Shown: positions 5,470 to 58,905 of the stretch, piece after piece
Layout: every line of letters begins with the position of its first letter
Position numbering within the stretch: position 1 is the stretch's first letter
From: Minisyncoccota bacterium
GTDB lineage: Bacteria; Patescibacteriota; Minisyncoccia; Phycocordibacterales; UBA1550
DNA length: 64,000 nucleotides
NCBI GenBank assembly: GCA_023229865.1
Contig: JALNYL010000006.1
Span: 5,597-69,596, forward strand
Direction of reading: 5' to 3'
Notes under the pieces: model-generated
The model's input: only the letters and a program-made list of their open reading frames with translations
Told to the model about the DNA's origin: nothing
Databases searched by the model: none
Program-made: the position numbers and the translations under genes

Positions 5470-5781
5470 CTAGAACTCCGGCAAATTGTCGAGATTGTCA
5501 GCGGCCTTCCCGTTATCAACAGTTTTTAAGTACTCCACGCCGTTTACTTTGATGATGTATATGGACTGCCCTTTGATCCACTTCCCCTCACTGCTTTTGG
5601 TGATAGTGACGAAGGTCGTTCCCTTTTTGATAGCGGCGACGATATCTGCGCGCGCGTAGTCGGTTGAAGCACCTATCGTCTCCCCGTTATCTGGGTGAAC
5701 CCTGAGTTTGTCTATGTGCGTATGCGCACTGTTGAACCTAACTGCTGATACACAATAATCTGCCCACTTAGCCATTCCCAC
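5470..5781 (-). CDS. DUF3892-family small protein
   Basis: MAKWADYCVSAVRFNSAHTHIDKLRVHPDNGE...GTTFVT pattern typical of DUF3892 (phage/MGE associated). Confidence 0.55.
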   Translation of the reverse strand: MGMAKWADYCVSAVRFNSAHTHIDKLRVHPDNGETIGASTDYARADIVAAIKKGTTFVTITKSSEGKWIKGQSIYIIKVNGVEYLKTVDNGKAADNLDNLPEF

Positions 5782-7016: not shown

Positions 7017-8075
7017 TCACTCCCTTCTAATAGGCTTATCTACACATGTTGGTCTTGGGGCTCCTGCGAAATTTGAATTCAACTTGGTACTAAGCTCCCA
7101 GCTGTCATCGGAAGTACGACTGCTCTCGACCTGGTTTTCAATGTCATCGGGAAGTTCAGAAAGGAAATCGATTTCCGTACGCCGTTCAATTTCATCAACA
7201 GTCGTGACAAGCTTTGAAAGCTCTGTGCCTGGCTTTGTTTGTTGTGTAAATATGACTGCAAGTACATTGGGTTTCCCGTCGGTCTCTTTTACGATGATCT
7301 TGTAAAACGCGACGGGCAACTCGACACCAGAACAAAGACGGTTGAGCCACACAGGATCAAAGATGGGGCCAGCAGTTACCCATATATTACCGACTTGTTC
7401 CGCGTATGAAGCCTCAAGCATTTCCAGCCCTAGCCACGACTTTTGGTTAAGTGAGGGAAGTTGTGGGGTGATGTTCGACATGAAGTAGGTCTCATTCTGC
7501 GAATCACATCCATGCCGTGAGCCTATGTTATCGCTTGGAGCCATGTGCCCACGGTCGTATCCCGAGCTGTTGTAGCTATCATGAGTGGTGCGAATGAGGG
7601 TGCGATCATCAGTGAGGAATCGAGATAGCCGAGGGCAATCATGCCCTTGATCTGTACCAATCTGATATGCAGACCATAGAGGGTTCGCCTTTGTTTCTGA
7701 ATACCCGACAGCGTACGCCGCGTTTTTGATGTGCGATATTTGATCGCTCACTTTGGAATCATTGGGGAGGCCACCAAAGAACACACTCCGCTCAACCCCA
7801 GGGGGATCGCCGCTGAACAAGCGAACTCGTGATTTGTATACCCACCCAGTCCCCGAACCATTGAGGAGCCGAATCTTATGGTAGCCATTTTGCAGTTTGT
7901 CACTTACGGTAAGCAGATAGATTTGCTGACTGAGCTTCTCCGGATGGACTGACTCAAGGATTGTTGCATTGCGGTCGGGGGATGCGTAGATGTTAGCGCT
8001 ACGCTTGACCTCAACATAGTTTGCCCAGGCGCAGGCTGGGAATATACACATCAGGATAAGCAGTGCCCGTCGCAT
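7017..8075 (-). CDS. secreted DNA/RNA non-specific endonuclease (Serratia NucA/Endonuclease_NS family) with N-terminal signal peptide and extra N-terminal domain
   Basis: SGYDRGHMAPSDN active-site (DRGH) motif, downstream N..TPQ region; signal peptide MRRALLILMCIFPACAWA; SD AGGAG before ATG 8075 (track start 8081 is GTG). Confidence 0.85.
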   Translation of the reverse strand: MRRALLILMCIFPACAWANYVEVKRSANIYASPDRNATILESVHPEKLSQQIYLLTVSDKLQNGYHKIRLLNGSGTGWVYKSRVRLFSGDPPGVERSVFFGGLPNDSKVSDQISHIKNAAYAVGYSETKANPLWSAYQIGTDQGHDCPRLSRFLTDDRTLIRTTHDSYNSSGYDRGHMAPSDNIGSRHGCDSQNETYFMSNITPQLPSLNQKSWLGLEMLEASYAEQVGNIWVTAGPIFDPVWLNRLCSGVELPVAFYKIIVKETDGKPNVLAVIFTQQTKPGTELSKLVTTVDEIERRTEIDFLSELPDDIENQVESSRTSDDSWELSTKLNSNFAGAPRPTCVDKPIRRE

Positions 8076-8130
8076 AACCACTCCTTCTATCTATGCTCGA
8101 TATACAAAGTTGAGTGATGCCGTGCCTGAC

Positions 8131-17359: not shown

Positions 17360-18520
17360 TTAATTCCTCACCGTCGTCGCACTAAACGGCTTACTCGGTG
17401 CGCCGTCGATCATGAGCTTGAGATATATGTCATGGTTCGGAATGTTCACCAAGTCCTCAGGTGAAAACACCGGCTCGAATTCCCGTGCAAGCGTCCGCGC
17501 ATCCTCTGCTCCTACGCGAAAGGCAATGAGCGTACCGACATTGCCCAGGACTGCATGCATCACCTCTCCTTCAAGTTGGTGAAGGTGCTGATTGGCAAGC
17601 ACGAGCCCAAGTTTGAATTTGCGAAGTTCCGACACAGTGTTCGCCACAGAAAGCGTCGTGAAGTTCTGGAATTCATCGAGGTGAAGATAAAACGGCCGAC
17701 GTGAATGTTCAGGTAGTTCGCTTCTGCTGAAGGCAGCAAGGTTGAGTGTGGTTACCAAGAGCGCCCCCAAGAGATTTGCGCTGTCGTCTCCCAATCGCCC
17801 CTTGGCGAGATTCACGATGAGGATCTTCCCTGAGTCCATGATGCGGCGAAAGCTGAGATCAATTGGTGGATTCGTAAGGATGCGGAAAAGCCTTGGGTCA
17901 GCAAGGAACGCGCCGATCTTGTTCTGGATAGGGGAGATCATCTCCTGGCGGTAGCGAGGGTTGTAGTCTTTGAACTCGTGTTCCCAAAATTCGCGCACCT
18001 GCACGTTGGAAATATTTTTCACTACGTTGTGTCGATACGCAGTGTCGCTAAACATGCGCAAAATGTCGGGGAGCGTCGCATCGCCGTACTCAATCAGAGC
18101 GTAGAGCGTGTTCCTGAGCACATGCTCCATGCGCACACCCCAAGCATCATCAAAGAGTTTCTTGAGCGCCTCCATGAGTCCTGAGACGGCAAGTGGCACC
18201 TTGTCCTTCCGCACCTGTCTGAGGGGGTTGTAGCCATACGGCTGATCGATATCAGCGGCATCCAGGTAGACGAGGTCGTCAGATCGCTCCTGGGGAATCC
18301 TGGCTATGAGACGCTCCGCCATATCGCCGTGCGGATCAATGACACACACTCCGTGCCCGTGTGCAATGTCCTGCTCTGCCAATGTCTCCATGAGCGTCGT
18401 CTTGCCGGTGCCGGTTTTTCCGATGACGTACAGGTGAAACAAGCGATCATCACTCTTGATGCCGAACCGCACCTTCTTTCTTCCGTTGGTCTCCGCAAAA
18501 TAGCTGATGTTGTTCTTCAT
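17360..18520 (-). CDS. HerA/DUF87/TrwB-like P-loop ATPase (386 aa)
   Basis: Walker A VIGKTGTGKTTL followed by VIDPHGD; Walker B YLHLDEFQNF. Confidence 0.65.
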   Translation of the reverse strand: MKNNISYFAETNGRKKVRFGIKSDDRLFHLYVIGKTGTGKTTLMETLAEQDIAHGHGVCVIDPHGDMAERLIARIPQERSDDLVYLDAADIDQPYGYNPLRQVRKDKVPLAVSGLMEALKKLFDDAWGVRMEHVLRNTLYALIEYGDATLPDILRMFSDTAYRHNVVKNISNVQVREFWEHEFKDYNPRYRQEMISPIQNKIGAFLADPRLFRILTNPPIDLSFRRIMDSGKILIVNLAKGRLGDDSANLLGALLVTTLNLAAFSRSELPEHSRRPFYLHLDEFQNFTTLSVANTVSELRKFKLGLVLANQHLHQLEGEVMHAVLGNVGTLIAFRVGAEDARTLAREFEPVFSPEDLVNIPNHDIYLKLMIDGAPSKPFSATTVRN

Positions 18521-23523: not shown

Positions 23524-23966
23524 TACCTCTCCGCTCATATTGAACCGCATCACTAGTTTCAACCACTTCTATTGCCAAACCGGAACATTTCCACTTCTAC
23601 ATATCAACACTCACAGCAAGTAGCATTGTCACATGCAATATAGCAACGAAGTCATACAGAAGTTTATCGCTGCCTACGAACGCGCGCATGGAGAAACACT
23701 CACGCGTGAGGAAGCGATAGTCATGTTTGGAAGACTTGTTCGACTCTATCGCGTATTGCTAATACCTCTGCCTGATGACGATGATCAGTCTACAGGGCTT
23801 CTTCTGTAGTATCTGGCTCCAGTGCTTCGAGCACTTGTTTTTGCAGTACTCGGATATTGTGTAAGACGTGTTCTGTTTCAGTGTCTCCAGTTTCAATTAA
23901 TGTGCGAACGTACTTCATGTACCCGCACAAAACGTAAAGAAAAACAGTGCCTGCGCACTGTTTTTT

Positions 23967-24080
23967 AGTTTTGTGAACCGCAGTGATGTTTTGCGAGCAC
24001 GCAAAACCACGAGGTGGGGCCGGCAAACACTTACGTCTGTGAGGATGTAATCATCCGAAGAGACTTAGTGATTTGTGGAC
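23967..24080 (+). repeat. copy A of ~110-nt conserved intergenic element (terminator hairpin, then TAGTTTTGTG..CCGCAG, hairpin with AGCA loop, CACGAGGTGGGG, CACTTACG, CTTAGTGA)
   Basis: aligned by eye with copies at 26244 and 28227. Confidence 0.5.
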
Positions 24081-24189: not shown

Positions 24190-24735
24190 TTACATCTGCA
24201 TCAAGCGTTTCAGGATTCGGTACGAGCTCATCGCCCCATTGAAGCCTTTGTGAGGCATCGATTCAACAGGGAGTCCGAGCCATTTGGCAACCTCGTCTTT
24301 GTTGAGCTTATCAATGCCGGAAGTCCTGAGTTTTGTCCAGCCGATAGTGAAGAGTTCAAGACGATGATAGTCCATATTGTCCGTGACCGCAGTTCTTCGG
24401 AAGGCTTCTGCAATAAAGGACCAGTCGTACGCCATGTTGTGAGCAGCAAAGAGGGCGCCTTGTGTCTTCTTCGCATATTGAGACATTGCAATACTGAGAG
24501 GGGGTGCGTCCACCCAGTCAGCTTCGTTGTAACCAGTGTGTGTGATACACTTCGCACTCGCTGTTTCGGGGTGCTCTGGTTTTACTCGCGTATCCATGGT
24601 GTCGATGATATCGAAAGTCCGTTGGTCAATGAGTACAAGTCCAATGTCGATAATTTCGTTGGTTATCGGGGAGTGTCCCGTGGTCTCGACATCAGTAATT
24701 GCGATCGGCCTATCAAGAATGCATACGTCATTCAT
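24190..24735 (-). CDS. DnaQ-like 3'-5' exonuclease (DEDDh family)
   Basis: Exo I ITDVETTG, Exo II HNMAYDWSFI, Exo III H...region; SD GAGGA. Confidence 0.8.
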   Translation of the reverse strand: MNDVCILDRPIAITDVETTGHSPITNEIIDIGLVLIDQRTFDIIDTMDTRVKPEHPETASAKCITHTGYNEADWVDAPPLSIAMSQYAKKTQGALFAAHNMAYDWSFIAEAFRRTAVTDNMDYHRLELFTIGWTKLRTSGIDKLNKDEVAKWLGLPVESMPHKGFNGAMSSYRILKRLMQM

Positions 24736-24860
24736 TTTGGAATCCTCTTCGTTTGTTTAAAGATCAGGTACTGCTTTTGATACACTCTCAAAAAGCGGGC
24801 CAAAAGTCAAACAAATAAAAACTGCCCGACTTGTGGTCGGGCAGTAGTAGTGAGGTTGAA

Positions 24861-25283
24861 TCAGTAGGGTTTCGGCTTGCCATCTTCTGTACGAATACGC
24901 ATGCGCGTTTCCGATACCGACAAGACCTTGATCAAGTTGATGTCAGGACTTGAGACGGAGCCGCTGGGAGAAATTTCCCAGACGGGCTGTTGCGCGTCTG
25001 CGAAATGGAGAGCCTCGCGGAATACTCCCGCCCCCCAGGTGCCATCACGGAAACCAAGGAAGATACCGGCGCTACAGCTCGGAAGGACGACTTCGGTGTA
25101 GTAGTCCATCCCATTACCCGTCTCGTTCTTGTACTTTTCGTAGCCCCCCGCGTGGTGACGTTGATTGGGGTTCTCGATTTCCCAGCCGGGGAAGATTTCC
25201 GCGATTTTTTCGAGAAGCTCTTGTTCAAGGGGAGTGTTGTAAACATTCACCGGGTGTCCGAAATACAATTTGCGTCCGCTCAT
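24861..25283 (-). CDS. hypothetical protein (140 aa; MSGRKLYFGHPVNVYNTPLEQELL...)
   Basis: ATG with SD AGGAGG 8 nt upstream; upstream part of track ORF unlikely translated. Confidence 0.5.
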   Translation of the reverse strand: MSGRKLYFGHPVNVYNTPLEQELLEKIAEIFPGWEIENPNQRHHAGGYEKYKNETGNGMDYYTEVVLPSCSAGIFLGFRDGTWGAGVFREALHFADAQQPVWEISPSGSVSSPDINLIKVLSVSETRMRIRTEDGKPKPY

Positions 25284-25324
25284 TTGATTGCCTCCTTGTC
25301 GTTTAAAGATCGAGATATTGCTAT

Positions 25325-25582
25325 TTGATAGCCTCTCAAAAAGGGGTGGAAAAGTCAATGCGCGGGGGGTATACTGTTTATATGATTAAATTTCCTCGGG
25401 CTGAATTTTGGGATATTTTTGGAGTTGGTGTTTTTGCCGCGATTACGCTTCTGAGCGGATGGGCCATCACGACAGGGGAGCCTATCCCTACGTGGGGGCT
25501 CGCGTTCCTGTTTTTTGTGGGGATTTTTGGGATTTTTGTTGACGGGACGATTGTAAATAAGACCTTTTTGAGGAAGAAATAG
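25325..25582 (+). CDS. small membrane protein, hypothetical
   Basis: two hydrophobic helices; start uncertain. Confidence 0.35.
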   Translation: MIASQKGVEKSMRGGYTVYMIKFPRAEFWDIFGVGVFAAITLLSGWAITTGEPIPTWGLAFLFFVGIFGIFVDGTIVNKTFLRKK

Positions 25583-25917: not shown

Positions 25918-25980
25918 TTTGATTTTAGAATAAATCTCTGTACGAAAGGCGGCCATGGCCGCCTTTCGTACAGAGAAAAT

Positions 25981-26055
25981 GCCCCTGTAGTTCAATGGAT
26001 AGAACAGTTCCGTCCTAAGGAATAGATGTAAGTTCGATTCTTACCAGAGGCACCA
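25981..26055 (+). tRNA. tRNA-Arg (anticodon CCT), CCA encoded; one C-A mismatch in acceptor stem
   Basis: cloverleaf folded by hand: D-arm TAGTTCAATGGATAGAACA, anticodon loop GTCCTAA, T-arm GTAAGTTCGATTCTTAC. Confidence 0.75.
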
Positions 26056-26056
26056 G

Positions 26057-26085
26057 AAAAATCTCTACGTTTGTAGAGATTTTTT
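26057..26085 (+). terminator. terminator hairpin after tRNA-Arg (AAAATCTCTAC-GTTT-GTAGAGATTTTTT)
   Basis: seen in sequence. Confidence 0.6.
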
Positions 26086-26243
26086 GTGCCCCTGGTAAGA
26101 ATCGAACAAGAAGGGGGCCAGGGAAACATTTGTTTCCCTGTGGAGGAAGGATTGGGAAAACCGTGGGTTTCCCAAGGGTGAGATAGTGAAGCGTCTTACC
26201 AGAGGCACAAAGCGTTAAGAAAACCTGCTCTTCTGCAGGTTTT

Positions 26244-26362
26244 TAGCTTTGTGCGACCGCAGCCATATTTCGTCAGCAGATGAAATGGCGAGGTGGGGTA
26301 GCGAGCACTTATGTAGATTGCGAGCAGGGCGAAGCAATATACTTAGTGACTCGTGACACAAG
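26244..26362 (+). repeat. copy B of conserved intergenic element (hairpin ATTTCGTC-AGCA-GATGAAAT, CGAGGTGGGG, CACTTATG, GATTGCGAGC, CTTAGTGAC)
   Basis: ~85% identical to copy C over ~105 nt. Confidence 0.55.
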
Positions 26363-26487: not shown

Positions 26488-27081
26488 ATGAATCCACCTG
26501 TGTGGTGTATTGGCATTACTGGCTTCAATGGGGCAGGGAAGTCAACTGTTGCGGAATTCCTCCGCGTCCACTATTCCGTGGGCTATTACGAGGCGGACGC
26601 ATTTCTCGAGGATGAACGCATCCGTCGTGAAATGCCAAAGGGAAGTGAGTCTCTCGCGTATGTCGCAAATGATTTGCGCGAAAAACACGGCCCCGAGCAC
26701 ATCATGAAAAGCCTCTCTGAAAAGGCAATCACGATTCGTGGACGCACACCGTTCATTATTGAGTCGGTGCGCTGTGTTGGGGAGGTCCAGTATCTCGCGC
26801 GGGAGTTTGGAGATAAATTTGCCCTTATCGGCGTGGATGCTCCAATCGAAGAGAGACATCGGCGTGTGATAGGACGAAAAAACCACACAGACTCCGTTGG
26901 CTTCAGGAAGTTTCTCGAACAAGAAACGCTTGAGATGGAGCAGCGGGATCCGTGGAAGCAAAATCTCCGCGGGTGCATGGATCTCGTGCGCAAAGAATTT
27001 CTCGTATGGAATGCGAGTACGGAATCGCAACTTGCTCGCGATCTCCGTATTATTGCGCGCGCTATGAGGCTTCCGTGTTGA
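26488..27081 (+). CDS. P-loop nucleotide/nucleoside kinase-like protein (dephospho-CoA kinase / dNK-like)
   Basis: IGITGFNGAGKSTVAEFL Walker A at N-terminus; SD AAGGGAG. Confidence 0.55.
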   Translation: MNPPVWCIGITGFNGAGKSTVAEFLRVHYSVGYYEADAFLEDERIRREMPKGSESLAYVANDLREKHGPEHIMKSLSEKAITIRGRTPFIIESVRCVGEVQYLAREFGDKFALIGVDAPIEERHRRVIGRKNHTDSVGFRKFLEQETLEMEQRDPWKQNLRGCMDLVRKEFLVWNASTESQLARDLRIIARAMRLPC

Positions 27082-27249
27082 TGTATGTTTTTCAAACCAG
27101 GGCGATTTGTCGTCCTGGTTTTTTGTTGAATCGCGGATAAGCACCGAATCATGAGGGGGTTGACATCTCTGTTCCTGGTGGTATTATTATACCTAGGAAC
27201 TTCGTTCCTGAAGTCGTTCTTTTTCACAAAATTTTCGAAAGGAAAACCT

Positions 27250-27600
27250 ATGGCACAAAATGCCAAAGCAGCAAAACCCACCCTCGGCCGGAATTTCCTG
27301 AACGTCACAGCGTTCTCGAACTTTCTTAATCAACCGTCAATGGAAGCCGCCATCGGCGCCAAGGGTTACGCCAAGTCCAAAAGCTGCCTCGATCTCTGCC
27401 TGAAAGGCCAGAAGATCCAGGAAGTCATGGTCGTCGGCGTTTCCGAAGGTGGTTTGGCCACCTGTGAGTTCTATGCACGTGGTGGCCGCAAAGAGGTGTT
27501 GTTTGCCTCGGCGGGTTGTCTCTCGGCAATCAAGCCAGTGGTCGCCAAACCCGCAGTCTCCAATGTGTACCAGGAGCTTGATCGTCTGGCCTTCGCTTAA
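27250..27600 (+). CDS. hypothetical protein (116 aa, locally GC-rich)
   Basis: ATG with GGAAAA upstream; followed by tandem hairpins/terminator 27611-27656. Confidence 0.4.
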   Translation: MAQNAKAAKPTLGRNFLNVTAFSNFLNQPSMEAAIGAKGYAKSKSCLDLCLKGQKIQEVMVVGVSEGGLATCEFYARGGRKEVLFASAGCLSAIKPVVAKPAVSNVYQELDRLAFA

Positions 27601-27990: not shown

Positions 27991-28114
27991 TAAAATTAGT
28001 CGAAAGTTAAAAGTGACAAGTCGAAAGTATTTGCCGAGGTAGCTGTTTTGGTAGGCCCAGAAGAGGGAAACAAAACAAAGTACCATGAAGGATAGGTAAG
28101 AGAAAAAAGTATAT

Positions 28115-28187
28115 GCCGAGGTAGCTCAGTTGGTAGAGCATTCGCCTGAAGAGCGAGGGGTCACCAGTTCAACCCTGGTCCTCGGCA
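28115..28187 (+). tRNA. tRNA-Phe (anticodon GAA), CCA not encoded
   Basis: GCCGAGGTAGCTCAGTTGGTAGAGC...anticodon loop CTGAAGA...GGTTCAACCC...CCTCGGCA. Confidence 0.85.
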
Positions 28188-28195
28188 CAAAATAC

Positions 28196-28227
28196 AAAAA
28201 CCGCACAACGTCGTTGTGCGGTTTTTG
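28196..28227 (+). terminator. terminator hairpin after tRNA-Phe (CCGCACAACG-T-CGTTGTGCGG + TTTTT)
   Basis: seen in sequence. Confidence 0.6.
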
Positions 28228-28390
28228 TATTTTGTGCCGAGGAAGTAAGCGGAGCTTGCGTCCAGGGTTGAAGGCCGCAGCTATATTTCGTCAACAGACG
28301 AAATAGCGAGGCGGGGGCGCAAGCACTTACGCAGATTGCGAGCTTTGCGAGGCAATATGCTTAGTGACTTGTGTCCGCCCTGATCCTCGG
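28227..28390 (+). repeat. copy C of conserved intergenic element (hairpin ATTTCGTC-AACA-GACGAAAT, CGAGGCGGGG, CACTTACG, GATTGCGAGC, CTTAGTGAC), closed by CCGAGGA...TCCTCGG long-range pairing
   Basis: aligned with copy B. Confidence 0.55.
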
Positions 28391-28402
28391 ATAAGTAGTA
28401 AA

Positions 28403-28457
28403 AGAAAAAGGACCGACTTTTGAATCATCTGATTCAAAAGTCGGTCCTTTTTCTTTT
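28403..28457. terminator. long bidirectional hairpin terminator (AAAAAGGACCGACTTTTGAATCA-TCT-GATTCAAAAGTCGGTCCTTTTT) after hsp20
   Basis: seen in sequence. Confidence 0.6.
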
Positions 28458-28465
28458 ACAATTTC

Positions 28466-35147: not shown

Positions 35148-35462
35148 ACTCTGAAATCATAGCAAACTGGGACAGGGATGCCAATTAACCTTGGAATACA
35201 GCTTATTTCTCTGACTGTGTCAAAGTCTCTGGCGTTGCGTTTGGGTAATACTTGCAGTCTGCGTGAGGGAAGCAGTGACAACATCTTGCTTGAAATCCTT
35301 CTTGCTTGATGCGGTTATTGCAGGAGGTGTGAATGTTGTGAGGGAGAGCCTCTGGAGTTTTTTGTTCGTTGGTCATGTGTACAGTATATACCTTTTAAAA
35401 AAGAAATTAAGGGTCACAAAAAACAAAAGAGCGCCCTGGGTGGTGCGCTCTTTTGTTTTTTG

Positions 35463-35534
35463 TGACCCTACGGGGAATCGAACCCCGGTTACCGGCTTGA
35501 AAAGCCGATGTCCTAACCGTTAGACGATAGGGCC
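35463..35534 (-). tRNA. tRNA-Glu (anticodon TTC), CCA not encoded
   Basis: minus-strand GGCCCTATCGTCTAACGGTTAGGACATCGGCTTTTCAAGCCGG...GGGGTTCGATTCCCCGTAGGGTCA. Confidence 0.8.
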
Positions 35535-35620: not shown

Positions 35621-35707
35621 GGAGATGTGGCTGAGCGGTTGAAGGCACCGCACTCGAAATGCGGCATATGGGAAACCGTATCGTGAGTTCAAATCTCACC
35701 ATCTCCG
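35621..35707 (+). tRNA. tRNA-Ser (anticodon CGA), long variable arm, CCA not encoded
   Basis: GGAGATGTGGCTGAGCGGTTGAAGGC...anticodon loop CTCGAAA...long variable arm...GTGAGTTCAAATCTCAC. Confidence 0.8.
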
Positions 35708-35757
35708 CTGTTTGAAAACAAAATAAACATTTCGCAGTTTTAAATAAATTGCAAAAT

Positions 35758-35831
35758 GGGCGATTAGCTCAGATGGTTAGAGTGCTACATTGACATTGTA
35801 GAGGTCGGAGGTTCGATTCCCCCATCGCCCA
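35758..35831 (+). tRNA. tRNA-Val (anticodon GAC), CCA not encoded
   Basis: GGGCGATTAGCTCAGATGGTTAGAGTGCTACATTGACATTGTAG...GGTTCGATTCCCCCATCGCCCA. Confidence 0.85.
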
Positions 35832-35840
35832 CAAAATCTT

Positions 35841-35878
35841 AAATCCCAAAATGAACATTTTGGGATTTCTTGATTTTG
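35841..35878 (+). terminator. terminator hairpin after tRNA-Val (AAATCCCAAAATG...CATTTTGGGATTT)
   Basis: seen in sequence. Confidence 0.55.
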
Positions 35879-36151
35879 TAAGTCGATGGGGGAATCGAAA
35901 GCGAGGGCGGGTACCCGTTCAGCAGAACGGGTCGCACGAGCAGGGTCGAGAAATTTTTACAAGCGACGGCGAGGAAAAATGTTCTTGACCGATTTTCGCC
36001 CAAGACGCGAATTTGCTAATTCGCCATCGCCCGCTGGTAAAAACATTAACACTCGCCTAGAGTGTTTTTTGTTTTGTGGGGGATGGCAGTTTTTTTGACT
36101 TCTTTTTCAAAAGTGCTAGCCTTAGAAAAGATAACCACTACGGGGGTTCAA

Positions 36152-36746: not shown

Positions 36747-37505
36747 ATGATTAATTACGAGCTTGCCGAAAATACCGAGCGCATACTTAAGGAAAAGTAT
36801 AACGGCGTTGAGACGCCTGAGTTTTTTGCTGATATTGAAAGGCTAAAAGCAGGGGAGCCTGTTGCGTATATTCTCGGCTACGAGGATTTCTTGGGGGTGC
36901 GCGTCGACTTGTCGCATCGTCCCATGATCCCGCGCCCAGAGTCAGCACACTGGACACTACGCGCTATCGACGAGCTCAAGACGCGTGGAGATGAGCCTAT
37001 CCGTGTCATCGATCTCTTTTCTGGTTCGGGGAATATTGGCCTCGCACTTTTGAAGCATCTCTCGAATGCACAGGTTGAATTTTCTGAGCTTGATCCTGAT
37101 CTCAGTGAGCAGATCGCAAAAAGTATTCGTCTCAACAATCTCGATATGGCGCGTGCAAAAATTTTTGCAGGAGATGCGCTCGAAGGGATGGAGGGAAAGT
37201 ATGACGCAATCCTTGGTAATCCTCCCTATATCGCTCCTGAAGCAAAAGATGAGCTCGACCCCGAGATGTCATATGAACCATCACTTGCGTTCTTTGGTGA
37301 CAATCACGGCCTCTATCATCACAAGCTTGTCATCGATACCGCATGGGACTTTTTGAAAGACGGTGGCGTGGTGTATATGGAAGCGGATGAAGACCAACGA
37401 CCCCATATCGAGAAGATGCTCGAGGGCACGCCGTGGACGTATGAATTTTGGGAGGATCAGTACGGGCAAGTGAGATTCCCCGTACTTAGGAAAATAGTGA
37501 AGTAG
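36747..37505 (+). CDS. prmC: release-factor glutamine N5-methyltransferase PrmC/HemK
   Basis: GNPPYIAPEA (NPPY) motif, SAM-binding DLFSGSGNIGLAL; track start 36699 is GTG inside the terminator. Confidence 0.8.
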   Translation: MINYELAENTERILKEKYNGVETPEFFADIERLKAGEPVAYILGYEDFLGVRVDLSHRPMIPRPESAHWTLRAIDELKTRGDEPIRVIDLFSGSGNIGLALLKHLSNAQVEFSELDPDLSEQIAKSIRLNNLDMARAKIFAGDALEGMEGKYDAILGNPPYIAPEAKDELDPEMSYEPSLAFFGDNHGLYHHKLVIDTAWDFLKDGGVVYMEADEDQRPHIEKMLEGTPWTYEFWEDQYGQVRFPVLRKIVK

Positions 37506-37558
37506 CCAATTTAAAAAAACGCGCGACCATTTGGTCGCGCGTTTTTTTAAATTGGCTA
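37504..37558. terminator. long bidirectional palindrome/terminator (AGCCAATTTAAAAAAACGCGCGACCA-TTT-TGGTCGCGCGTTTTTTTAAATTGGCT)
   Basis: seen in sequence. Confidence 0.65.
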
Positions 37559-38485
37559 CTTTGAATGTAAATACTGGAAGATGTCTTCGAGTGCGCGCAC
37601 GGCATCACCTGCGGCGATGTTGTTTTGGTGATAGAGGACGTCGGTGCAGTCTCCTGCGGCCCAGATCCCTGGCACGCTCGTCTTTTGCGTGCGGGGGTCG
37701 GTGACGACATTTTTGCTCTCGTTCAAATCAACGACACCCTCGAGGAATCCTGTGTTGGGGAGCTGTCCAATTTCTATAAAGATACCACCAACAGAGAGTT
37801 CCTTTGTCTCTCCCGTTATTCTGTCGCGGATAACGATACCGTTTACAAATTGCTCGCCTTTTACTTCGAGTATTTCTACGTTTGTCGCTGCGCGCATGTT
37901 GGGGTGTGAAAGTACTTTCTCCACCGTGACGGCGTCGGCGCGATTGAACGAAGGGCTGCGATTGATGATGGTAACAGATTTTGCATACGAGAGGAGTTGG
38001 GCAGCTGTCTCAAAAGCAGCATTGCCTGCGCCGATGACCGCGAGATCTTGATCGGCAAACATTGGACCGTCGCATGATGCGCAGTAGGTGAGACCTTTGT
38101 GTTCGTATTTGTCAGCACCGAGGGCTTCGAGCTTGCGGCGATGACTTCCTGTTGATACCAGTATTGTGCGCGCGGTGTATGAGCCTTTCTCTGTGGTTAC
38201 GACAAAATTATCACCTTGTTTTTCGAGCTTCTGTACACGCTCTTCTTTCATCGTGAGCACATCAGCAGCGTATGCCTCAACGTGCGCCTTAAGTGAAGCA
38301 GCAAGCTGGGGCCCCGAGATGGCGATGGTGCCAATCCAGTTTTGGACCTCAGCTGAGTCTGTTGATTGTCCTGCGTAGACCTCAGCGAGCATGAGAGTCT
38401 TCACGCGTTTGCGCGCTGCGTATACTCCAGCAGCGGCTCCTGCGGGGCCACCACCAATAATAATAAGGTCGTAAATATCTTCCAT
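37556..38485 (-). CDS. trxB: thioredoxin-disulfide reductase
   Basis: FAD GGGPAG, redox CASCDG, NADPH GAGNAAFE motifs; coupled to ftsZ stop (TAAATG). Confidence 0.85.
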   Translation of the reverse strand: MEDIYDLIIIGGGPAGAAAGVYAARKRVKTLMLAEVYAGQSTDSAEVQNWIGTIAISGPQLAASLKAHVEAYAADVLTMKEERVQKLEKQGDNFVVTTEKGSYTARTILVSTGSHRRKLEALGADKYEHKGLTYCASCDGPMFADQDLAVIGAGNAAFETAAQLLSYAKSVTIINRSPSFNRADAVTVEKVLSHPNMRAATNVEILEVKGEQFVNGIVIRDRITGETKELSVGGIFIEIGQLPNTGFLEGVVDLNESKNVVTDPRTQKTSVPGIWAAGDCTDVLYHQNNIAAGDAVRALEDIFQYLHSK

Positions 38486-54344: not shown

Positions 54345-54415
54345 GAGAAGATCCCCTTATCGTTTGTAGTACTGGCTTCGTCCTCGTCGAATGATAAAAA
54401 ACTAAATTAAATCTC

Positions 54416-54454
54416 AACCCCCGCGATTCGGCTGAATCGCGGGGGTTTCGTTTT
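54416..54454 (+). terminator. rho-independent terminator (CCCCCGCGATTC-GGCT-GAATCGCGGGGG + T-tract)
   Basis: seen in sequence. Confidence 0.65.
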
Positions 54455-54567
54455 GTTAGTTTATGATATACTATCGTAGTAATTATTAATTAAAAAACTA
54501 GTTTTTAATTGGCATGGATTGGTTGATTCCTAAAATCTAAAACCTGTCAGCTAAAACCTATTAAATC

Positions 54568-56855: not shown

Positions 56856-56867
56856 AAGGTGGTGACT

Positions 56868-56912
56868 AAAAACAGCGCCCGCGATTCGACCGAATCGCGG
56901 GCGCTGTTTTTA
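56868..56912. terminator. terminator hairpin (AAAACAGCGCCCGCGATTCG-AC-CGAATCGCGGGCGCTGTTTT) sharing core with the 54416 terminator
   Basis: seen in sequence. Confidence 0.65.
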
Positions 56913-58808: not shown

Positions 58809-58818
58809 AGAATTTTTG

Positions 58819-58905
58819 CGGAGGATGAGGGATTTGAACCCTCGAACGAGTTGCCCCGTTGCCACCTTTCCAAGATGGTGCACTAGACCGCTATGCGAAT
58901 CCTCC
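58819..58905 (-). tRNA. tRNA-Ser (anticodon GGA), long variable arm, CCA not encoded
   Basis: minus-strand GGAGGATTCGCATAGCGGTCTAGTGCACCATCTTGGAAAGGTGG...GAGGGTTCAAATCCCTCATCCTCCG. Confidence 0.8.

Follow-up and report, generated by a model that had tools for sequence, protein, structure and literature searches.

Small gene-less cassettes with a structured core in the tRNA 3' ends of Patescibacteria

Introduction

Which process leaves copies of a tRNA 3' end, in direct as well as in inverted orientation, behind the tRNA gene itself? The question is raised by a stretch of 64,000 nucleotides (nt) of a Minisyncoccota bacterium (GenBank assembly GCA_023229865.1, contig JALNYL010000006.1, forward strand positions 5,597 to 69,596), here called the window, in which fragments of the tRNA-Arg 3' end lie downstream of the gene in both orientations and a similar pattern follows tRNA-Phe and tRNA-Val. 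An earlier inspection of the letters alone (the sequence-only reading) had regarded the direct copy as the scar of a site-specific integration into the tRNA gene and the inverted copy as the possible terminal inverted repeat of a mobile element.

Insertion scars at tRNA 3' ends are classical. We describe here small (~150-250 nt) cassettes without genes, whose residence in the tRNA 3' ends of Paceibacteria and related Patescibacteria is well supported. Compared to Rfam 15 and the literature searched, new are the gene-less and multi-family nature of these cassettes, their covarying core, the fixed T-loop junction and the target-derived arm matched to the live tRNA; full-text literature searches turned up no report of cassettes of this kind. 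In the tiny genomes of Patescibacteria spare DNA is scarce, yet about half of the tRNA genes of the window bear at least one cassette.

Results

Cassettes share one frame at the tRNA 3' end

tRNA genes of the window were called by ARAGORN and Rfam. We denote by U the target segment in the 3' part of a tRNA, reaching from T-loop position C56 to the discriminator, and by U' the inverted copy of U. Along the tRNA strand the parts of a cassette follow each other in the well-supported order U, hairpin terminator, U', core of ~105 nt, U and original terminator; equally well supported is that the proximal U is a fresh copy completing the live tRNA and the distal U the displaced original, persisting as a decaying direct repeat. 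Often U' is interrupted, ~11 nt before its end, by a CUGC-loop side hairpin. The gap between tRNA and core is bimodal. Copies with a gap of 63-89 nt (type I) have a U' that stops at the complement of T54, 2-4 nt short of the core, and a direct repeat beginning from C56, 0-1 nt past the GTGAC end of the core (junction consensus ...GGATTCGAA-AG/core/GTGAC-C/GAATCC, slashes marking the borders). Copies with a gap of 45-48 nt (type II) carry the CUGC hairpin directly behind the tRNA, with arms that pair with each other.

tRNA-Arg of the window bears two stacked cassettes, the proximal one (26056-26194) with a core of a family termed X and, past the repeat between them, a type II cassette (26205-26358) with a core of the family termed CCGCAG, and tRNA-Phe and tRNA-Val bear one cassette each (Table 1). 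The sequence-only reading had matched 26088-26107 behind tRNA-Arg to the reverse complement of 26032-26051, which we reproduce (19/20); the full U' comprises T-loop, T-stem and acceptor 3' strand in reverse complement and is part of a 33-nt inverted repeat (26032-26064 with 26075-26107, 85% complementary) around a T-run hairpin. The direct copy of 26040-26054 is also present at 26195-26209, with 14 of 15 positions identical and not all 15 as had been implied. The segment between the two copies, suspected of being a miniature element, is indeed a conserved core: it is ~95% identical over ~70 nt to the X core behind tRNA-Arg(ccg) in locus L017, has a relative behind tRNA-Tyr in L019 and folds with a z-score of -9.1.

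At tRNA-Phe, a perfect 32-nt inverted repeat (28179-28210 with 28212-28243) has as its outer end the inverted fragment noted before (28179-28189 with 28233-28243), and a further 11 nt of the inverted copy (U'b), lying past an 18-nt hairpin, had been overlooked. The direct repeats at this locus (28168-28188 with 28378-28390) leave the tRNA gene restored. At tRNA-Val, the inverted copy holds as described (35812-35829 against the reverse complement of 35882-35899, 17/18); the core behind it scores below the covariance-model threshold and is a putative assignment. Decayed direct copies behind both tRNA-Phe and tRNA-Val add to the earlier description, and the cores do begin directly after the inverted fragments, as it had stated (26255, 28273 and ~35900).

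Table 1. Cassette parts, core families and associated features; positions refer to the window unless a locus is named.
Feature	Position	Strand	Remark
tRNA-Gly 3'-end remnant TACCCGCA before copy A, rest of the tRNA missing	23920-23927	+	intact tRNA-Gly(ccc) before the orthologous cassette in L009, L020
Copy A (type II), CUGC-loop hairpin with self-complementary A/T arms CACAAAAC...GTTTTGTG	23928-23975	+	
Copy A, CCGCAG-family structured core	23976-24080	+	covariance-model match 95.6 bits
Copy A, second right-end motif TTCGTGAC, then decayed tRNA-Gly 3' segment	24120-24146	+	
tRNA-Arg(cct)	25981-26055	+	U = last ~20 nt, 26032-26054
Arg cassette 1, hairpin H1 with T-run	26056-26085	+	terminator-like
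Arg cassette 1, U' of tRNA T54 to first C of CCA (GTGCCCCTGGTAAGAATCGAAC)	26086-26107	+	21/22 complementary
Arg cassette 1, family X core, two hairpins, right end ...GAGATAGTGAAGCGT	26108-26194	+	
Direct copy of tRNA-Arg 3' end CTTACCAGAGGCACA	26195-26209	+	14/15; boundary of cassettes 1 and 2
Arg cassette 2, type II hairpin, arms GCACAAAGC...GCTTTGTGC	26205-26254	+	
Arg cassette 2, CCGCAG-family core	26255-26358	+	covariance-model match 100 bits
Partial 5' duplicate of tRNA-Phe (leader + first 22 nt)	28024-28054	+	87% identical; none in L009, L020
tRNA-Phe(gaa)	28115-28188	+	
Palindrome with perfect 32-nt arms: tRNA-Phe 3' end, trailer, H1, inverted copy U'a (TGCCGAGGA)	28179-28243	+	100% complementary
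Phe cassette, side hairpin H2 (18 nt) splitting the inverted copy	28244-28261	+	
Phe cassette, U'b CCAGGGTTGAA, 11 nt antisense to the T-arm	28262-28272	+	complements tRNA-Phe 54-64
Phe cassette, CCGCAG-family core	28273-28376	+	covariance-model match 97.8 bits
Decayed direct copy of tRNA-Phe 3' segment (CCCTGaTCCTCGG)	28378-28390	+	displaced original end
Bidirectional terminator common to hsp20	28393-28464	.	T-tract and downstream flank orthologous to the empty-site terminator in L009, L020
tRNA-Glu terminator palindrome, perfect 25-nt arms 35410-35434/35445-35469	35410-35469	-	distal arm = inverted copy of the last 7-8 nt of the tRNA
tRNA-Val(gac)	35758-35832	+	
Val cassette, hairpin H1	35841-35868	+	
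Val cassette, U'	35882-35899	+	17/18
Val cassette, putative diverged core: AGCA-loop hairpin, CGAGCAGGG, long hairpin, right end TTGAC	35900-35989	+	direct sequence reading
Two decayed direct copies of tRNA-Val 3' segment: CGATTTTCGCCCA (35990-36002), ATTCGCCATCGCCCGC (36019-36034)	35990-36034	+	
Core family X	26108-26194; L017; L019		
Core family Y	L061 3957-4130; L063 2150-2316; L076; L130		not in Rfam 15
Core family Z	L018 2170-2330; L073; second unit of L014 (1137-1260)		not in Rfam 15
HTH_23/LYWAEG protein	L063 2431-3117; L082 5080-5760; L088 2282-2968; L081 8035-8709; L021 1-923		

The CCGCAG core is conserved among Paceibacteria and covaries

Three cores of ~105 nt in the window (copy A and those behind tRNA-Arg and tRNA-Phe) define the CCGCAG family and share the motifs CCGCAG, CGAGGYGGGG, CACTTA and TTAGTGAYTCGTGAC. 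A pattern search in one genome per species gave 20 loci, nearly all from Paceibacteria, including metagenome-assembled genomes (MAGs) of Yonathbacteria, Lloydbacteria and Campbellbacteria; 17 of these have a tRNA, which can be of any isotype, on the same strand 48-104 nt ahead of the core. At least 120 further loci came from a metagenome scan. With a covariance model built from 17 copies, we obtained, among the matches listed, 138 unique cores, almost all from MAGs of Paceibacteria or related Patescibacteria and from groundwater metagenomes, and 79 of these have a same-strand tRNA at most 160 nt upstream, with 16 isotypes represented. Significant direct repeats around the cores span 11-100 nt (~18-21 nt in type I copies at tRNAs), and a closing stem of at least 8 base pairs is present in 33 of the 138 copies (24%) compared to 4.6% of controls, 26 of them in one register.

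The alignment strongly supports an RNA-like fold of the core. In 113 aligned cores, 91.2% of the cells are paired compared to 77.3% in shuffles and 32-46% in slid controls, and compensatory changes occur at 17 of 22 pairs, in 340 cells, a result reached by none of 500 shuffles. At several pairs a G-U is conserved (at one of them in 106 of 111 sequences), which identifies the tRNA-sense strand as the folding strand. Searches of the window and ten loci against Rfam 15, at gathering as well as permissive thresholds, returned tRNAs only, plus spurious matches to miRNA hairpins, and an exact-pattern scan for the core in 2.9 million viral contigs gave no match. A sigma-70-like promoter belonging to the cores was not found, and the cores sit behind terminator-like hairpins with T-runs. 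An intrinsic-terminator scan called the hairpin of copy A and H1 of tRNA-Val; H1 of tRNA-Arg (too few G-C pairs) and H1 of tRNA-Phe (1-nt loop) fail this simple scan and are each followed by a T-run.

At least three further core families (X, Y and Z, Table 1) occur within the same succession of U', core and U, showing that the frame is independent of the core. Occasionally the same frame is also found behind protein genes, with the inverted copy lying over the stop codon, as at the rpsI 3' end in L108, where it forms a 29-nt perfect palindrome; other protein-gene sites have an 18-nt direct repeat over the last codons (L131) or a 46-nt direct repeat (L044).

Cassettes at the rpsI 3' end were seen in L078, L091, L108 and L128, and the last codons of this gene (TGG TCG AAG CGT TAA) resemble a T-loop (GGTTCGAATC). 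Target choice may depend on a TCGAA-like motif.

Occupancy differs between orthologous tRNA loci and cassettes stack

Two Yonathbacteria genomes, represented by L009 and L020, have their Gly(ccc), Arg(cct) and Phe tRNA genes in the order of the window. Their tRNA-Phe is identical to that of the window, and what comes directly behind it is a simple terminator, then hsp20; at this place the window is ~200 nt longer. tRNA-Arg has no cassette in L020, and in L009 it has an X-type left part in which U' has changed in step with the tRNA of that genome. This comparison of orthologous loci had been proposed by the sequence-only reading. Occupancy varies (Phe empty in L009 and L020, Arg empty in L020), and since the arrangement is not identical at every orthologous tRNA, insertion is favoured over a fixed processing structure.

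Up to three cassettes are stacked behind one tRNA, with a copy of U at each boundary and the outermost copy decayed. In L024, three cassettes come with four direct copies of U, of which the last is decayed, and the three cassettes of L100 contain different cores. Stacked neighbours are 0.48-0.74 identical, L048 being the sole exact duplicate, and this divergence points to successive events, not to recent tandem duplication. Cores at different tRNAs of the same genome can reach the top 1-5% of similarity (window Arg/Phe 0.82, L076 Gly/Arg 0.81 and L070 0.77, with the between-contig 95th percentile at 0.77), while hairpin, U and U' are locus-specific, and cores appear to spread between tRNAs.

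The direct repeats are understood as junction repeats of DNA inserted at the tRNA 3' end, and to this extent the earlier idea of an integration scar stands; classic phage or island integration finds no support, as no recombinase gene accompanies the cassettes. The cassettes contain no open reading frame (ORF), and their att-like repeats enclose no recombination genes. All-against-all clustering of the ORFs of 140 loci (8-14 kb) showed only syntenic housekeeping genes to recur, and Pfam searches with 20 ORFs of the window yielded no recombinase, reverse transcriptase or transposase.

The inverted copy is derived from the local target and matched to the live tRNA

In 200 shuffles, the inverted and direct matches at tRNA-Arg, tRNA-Phe and tRNA-Val were equalled in 0-3.5%, and those at most related loci in none; a reversed-sequence control gave ~1% compared to 24-38% observed, and the matches run 15-43 nt into tRNA-specific stem sequence. 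These controls refute the practically negligible alternative that conserved, near-palindromic T-arms produce the matches by chance, for which it could be said that TTCGAA is its own reverse complement, so that a few of the matches are expected anyway. Behind tRNA-Ala, U' (U'a) has an A opposite U70, and hence is the exact complement of the 3' strand and not a copy of the 5' strand. Over the last 12 nt ahead of the core, 35 of 46 type I copies match the live tRNA better than the relic and 4 match it worse; as U' tracks the live tRNA while the distal U decays, U' must be maintained, either by copying or by selection. Eleven of 16 long hairpins reaching into the tRNA are perfect and the mismatches lack a wobble (G-T) bias, a comparison of low power with 13 mismatches in all; hairpin stems at orthologous loci are wholly different yet perfect.

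The notion that the inverted segment is the terminal inverted repeat of an element has to be given up. It differs from locus to locus, being complementary to the local tRNA or, at few loci, to the end of a protein gene, and across the repeat copies it is missing or reduced to a 5-8 nt trailer in type II, as in copy A.

Long palindromes also occur without cores. The terminator palindrome behind tRNA-Glu (gene at 35462-35534, minus strand), not noted before, has no core behind it. The inter-gene terminators 37500-37561, 25933-25978 and 28393-28464 are perfect or near-perfect palindromes with 20-35-nt arms, the first of them extending over the stop codon and the final codon of each of the two convergent genes (AAGTAG...CTACTT). 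Such terminators suggest a genome-wide building or perfecting of palindromes at terminators, independent of cassette cores, and hairpin-templated copying probably acts genome-wide.

Discussion

The cassettes are shown to insert at a fixed T-loop position, to duplicate their target and to stack; their fold is strand-specific and they lack coding capacity. Overall, we consider a family of insertion cassettes with a proposed folded-strand entry the best explanation, with about even chances of being right. According to this model, a cassette would enter at one point of the T-loop (55/56) with the help of an enzyme supplied in trans, the incoming form being a folded single strand or small circle with U' paired to U. 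The U':U stem would rebuild the target duplex and the core would form its loop; exchange within U would give the order U, hairpin, U', core and U, and repeated events would result in stacking. The tRNA-proximal palindrome of U, hairpin and U' would be kept perfect by hairpin-templated copying, which would account for U' following the live tRNA while the distal U decays. Recombination of a folded strand or small circle within U, taken as a step of its own and proposed by analogy, is tentative and rather doubtful.

Several observations weigh against this explanation. Among the 138 copies, an inverted copy next to the core is significant in only 80 and a direct repeat in only 65, and in type II the repeat consists of the trailer CACAAA only, of 5-8 nt, or is not detectable. 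The search for a recombinase, reverse transcriptase or HUH nuclease in the cassettes, or consistently close to them, gave nothing, and no circular or excised cassette form was seen. The empty tRNA-Phe sites could reflect precise loss via the direct repeats rather than recent gain. A folded-strand model predicts homing to the same target and leaves perfect U/U' pairs at 16 or more isotypes and at protein-gene ends unexplained, and the long perfect palindromes without core (tRNA-Glu, 37500-37561) imply that the inverted-copy signal may partly stem from a separate genome-wide process. The conserved G-U pairs suggest RNA folding over DNA folding, yet terminator-like hairpins precede the cores and there is no promoter.

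Among the rivals, the cores might be host or selfish RNA genes riding on tRNA transcription, in which U' acts as an acceptor/T-arm mimic together with the downstream U (to be cut by RNase P and RNase Z) or as an antisense to the tRNA 3' half, the repeats being a requirement of the RNA. Strong covariation and conserved G-U pairs on the tRNA-sense strand speak for such genes, as do the position of the cores, always on the same strand as, and directly behind, the upstream tRNA or ribosomal protein gene without a promoter of their own, the U' kept complementary to the live tRNA and the arms around H2, which would form a three-way junction with U. The mimic version fails, however, as the stem of U' with the downstream U reaches at least 10 of 12 pairs in only 4 of 46 copies, and in general the T-run hairpins before the cores, the hairpin arms that are perfect or randomly mismatched without G-U tolerance, and the unexplained origin of the repeats make this reading unlikely; a spreading element accounts better for stacking, for presence/absence differences and for a small genome holding 10 or more copies. 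Alternatively, a T-loop-specific tyrosine integrase could have recombined double-stranded attP and attB sites, the cassettes being decayed or minimal relics of phages or islands, similar to integrase-less cis-mobilizable elements (CIMEs), with the core as the att arm region and an incidental inverted copy. A T-loop sublocation class of integrases was reportedly described by Williams (2002). Direct repeats from the T-loop to the tRNA 3' end with a restored tRNA, tandem accretion and the variable cargo genes downstream of tRNA-Arg in the window, L009 and L020 all accord with such relics. So does the occurrence of tRNA gene fragments, a known by-product of integration according to PMC9897764. We nevertheless regard this origin as quite improbable, given that neither the cassettes nor the 8-14 kb loci nor the 20 window ORFs tested contain an integrase, that the exact core pattern is missing from the viral contigs, that RNA-type covariation and strand-specific G-U pairs are not expected of a duplex protein-binding arm, that one core serves many tRNAs each with a locus-specific U, and that a 20-nt inverted copy kept matched to the tRNA is left unexplained.

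Template switching at terminator hairpins combined with unequal crossing-over could produce direct-inverted-direct micro-triplications without any mobile element, the cores then being conserved local sequence. This would agree with the long perfect palindromes reaching into flanking genes without a core (35410-35469 at tRNA-Glu, 37500-37561), with the perfection of 11 of 16 long hairpins and the missing wobble bias, with orthologous stems that differ entirely yet are perfect, and with the one exact tandem duplication in L048. As a full account it is very improbable, for it explains neither the same sharp-ended ~105-nt cores at 16 or more isotypes in many genomes nor the unvarying ~11 nt between H2 and the core, the fixed 55/56 junction or stacked neighbours from different core families; template switching does probably explain the perfection of U'. 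A programmable and self-propagating non-coding element, in which the core acts as RNA or single-stranded DNA, U' serves as a target-complementary arm split by the CUGC hairpin, cutting and insertion take place at 55/56 and the arm is rewritten for each target, has in our view a small chance of being correct. Insertion at the end of a guide-target helix would make the duplicated segment the guided segment, and if true, this would be a programmable mobile module free of protein genes, possibly ribozyme-assisted, parasitising the tRNA genes of ultra-small bacteria.

Further candidates were considered and dropped. A tRNA mimic or scaffold for RNase P and RNase Z is not compatible with a closing stem that is not maintained with the relic, and an aminoacylatable mimic not with U'a being an exact complement (A3-U70 behind tRNA-Ala). 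The primer-binding site of a tRNA-primed retroelement was rejected because of protein-gene targets and because no reverse transcriptase was found, a hammerhead-like arm-hairpin-arm because of the lacking catalytic consensus, and an IS110 bridge RNA because both arms pair with one strand and no recombinase was found. IS200/IS605 and the omega RNA of TnpB were excluded by the presence of a target duplication and the absence of an Rfam match, the GTTC target of IS91 by a junction tetranucleotide that is not conserved, and the variable and template repeats of diversity-generating retroelements by the wrong order of parts and no adenine-specific divergence.

The cassettes share traits with several known systems. 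Like tRNA-targeting integrative elements (tyrosine-integrase phages and islands, tycheposons) and CIMEs, they insert at tRNA 3' ends with repeats from T-loop to 3' end and a restored tRNA, and accrete in tandem with older relics distal and non-autonomous members. In contrast to these, they are 150-250 nt in size, gene-less and absent from viral contigs in the exact-pattern scan, and their single-strand fold covaries; one core family is shared by many different tRNAs, and the ~20-nt inverted target copy is matched to the live tRNA. In CTX phage and, formally, in integron attC cassettes, a folded single strand mimics the target duplex and then recombines. The CTX attP(+) hairpin and attC show the same linear order of repeat, payload, inverted repeat, structured loop and repeat, a strand-specific fold with conserved non-Watson-Crick positions and the addition of new units at one array end, and the one-strand inverted repeats around a variable centre that mark attC boundaries in arrays are found in the cassettes as well. 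The cassette stem differs in being host-derived and locus-specific instead of a fixed dif or R-box consensus, and its conserved G-U pairs point to RNA. The junctions (...TTCGAA-AG and GTGAC/CGAAT) are not the R''/R' sites of attC (RYYYAAC/GTTRRRY), no IntI integrase was found, and the targets are tRNA T-loops and gene ends rather than the dif site of CTX-type integrative mobile elements exploiting Xer (IMEX), with no Xer-type enzyme tied to the cassettes.

With repetitive extragenic palindromes (REP/REPIN), miniature inverted-repeat transposable elements (MITEs) and terminator-targeting elements such as group IIC introns, the cassettes have in common that they are small, non-coding, multicopy, intergenic, hairpin-rich, located after terminators and presumably mobilised in trans. 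Unlike MITEs, they possess neither element-owned terminal inverted repeats nor a fixed short target duplication, their arms being derived from the target; unlike group IIC introns, they show no group II domain structure and no Rfam match. RNAs linked to tRNA genes (3' external transcribed spacer sponges, tRNA-snoRNA dicistrons, viral tRNA-miRNA units, theta ribozymes following phage tRNAs) resemble them as same-strand structured RNAs behind a tRNA without an own promoter, but the cassettes lie behind a terminator hairpin, are flanked by target duplications, stack, are polymorphic and have no Rfam 15 match. Quasi-palindrome template-switch mutagenesis also creates or perfects inverted repeats around hairpins and fits the perfect arms and the absence of a wobble bias, but it does not bring a sharp-ended conserved core to many loci.

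For the catalogue of structured RNAs, this adds one strongly supported class with more than 130 distinct copies in public data and three provisional ones (X, Y and Z). The tRNA 3' flanks of Patescibacteria are built by repeated insertion, which bears on the reading of terminators and on the use of tRNA flanks as strain markers, and as tRNA fragments and anti-fragments will confuse gene callers, the cassettes are relevant to tRNA annotation. No insertion system was matched to an inverted copy that follows the live tRNA beside a decaying relic, posing the question of folded-strand recombination, a guide-like arm or hairpin-templated copying.

Further features of the window and related loci

Copy A illustrates a cassette whose tRNA is largely gone. 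Its hairpin is identical throughout the Gly subfamily (L005, L009, L013, L017 and L020), and its right end was called by comparison with L009 and L020, in which CGATTC...TACCCGCAC comes after TTCGTGAC. Upstream of copy A (window 1-23930, for instance 17360-18520 and 7017-8081), a TrwB/VirD4-like type IV coupling protein and a non-specific DNA/RNA endonuclease are encoded together with several ORFs without a Pfam match; this region may be a larger island that disrupted or displaced tRNA-Gly. Downstream, the ~1.2 kb between copy A and the gene of a conserved membrane protein of 85 amino acids (aa) (24190-25358) is absent from L009 and L020 and contains a 165-aa ORF as well as the gene of an RNase T/DnaQ-like exonuclease on the minus strand (24190-24735).

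The genes between tRNA-Arg and a conserved 115-aa gene differ across the window, L009 and L020, making the tRNA-Arg flank a variable hotspot; in the window, 26488-27600 holds a P-loop kinase-like ORF and a 149-aa ORF. A recurrent protein of ~225 aa with an N-terminal helix-turn-helix (Pfam HTH_23) and a conserved LYWAEG motif is encoded directly beside tRNA genes in several loci (Table 1), in L021 directly behind a cassette. It was dropped as a cassette-associated gene, having no homologue in the window and no consistent position relative to the cassettes.

The partial 5' duplicate of tRNA-Phe reported by the sequence-only reading is confirmed (28024-28054 compared to 28106-28136). Three partial 5' tRNA duplicates lie upstream of tRNA-Arg in L009 (3760-3875), beside an AGCA-loop hairpin, and all of these, one at tRNA-Phe of the window and three in L009, consist of the leader plus the first 13-22 nt; they may represent a mirror-image event on the 5' side of the tRNA. 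The tRNA-Phe gene of L009 encodes CCA (GGCACCA, L009 4918-4922), that of the window (28185-28190) and that of L020 (GGCACAAAA) do not, and whether CCA is genome-encoded changes through cassette insertion or flank turnover.

tRNA-Ser and tRNA-Val were called within 35621-35832 and a second tRNA-Ser at 58818-58905. Two terminator-like hairpins 2.4 kb apart (54415-54456 and 56865-56906) have the stem CCCGCGATTCG..CGAATCGCGGG in common and may form a small repeated family.

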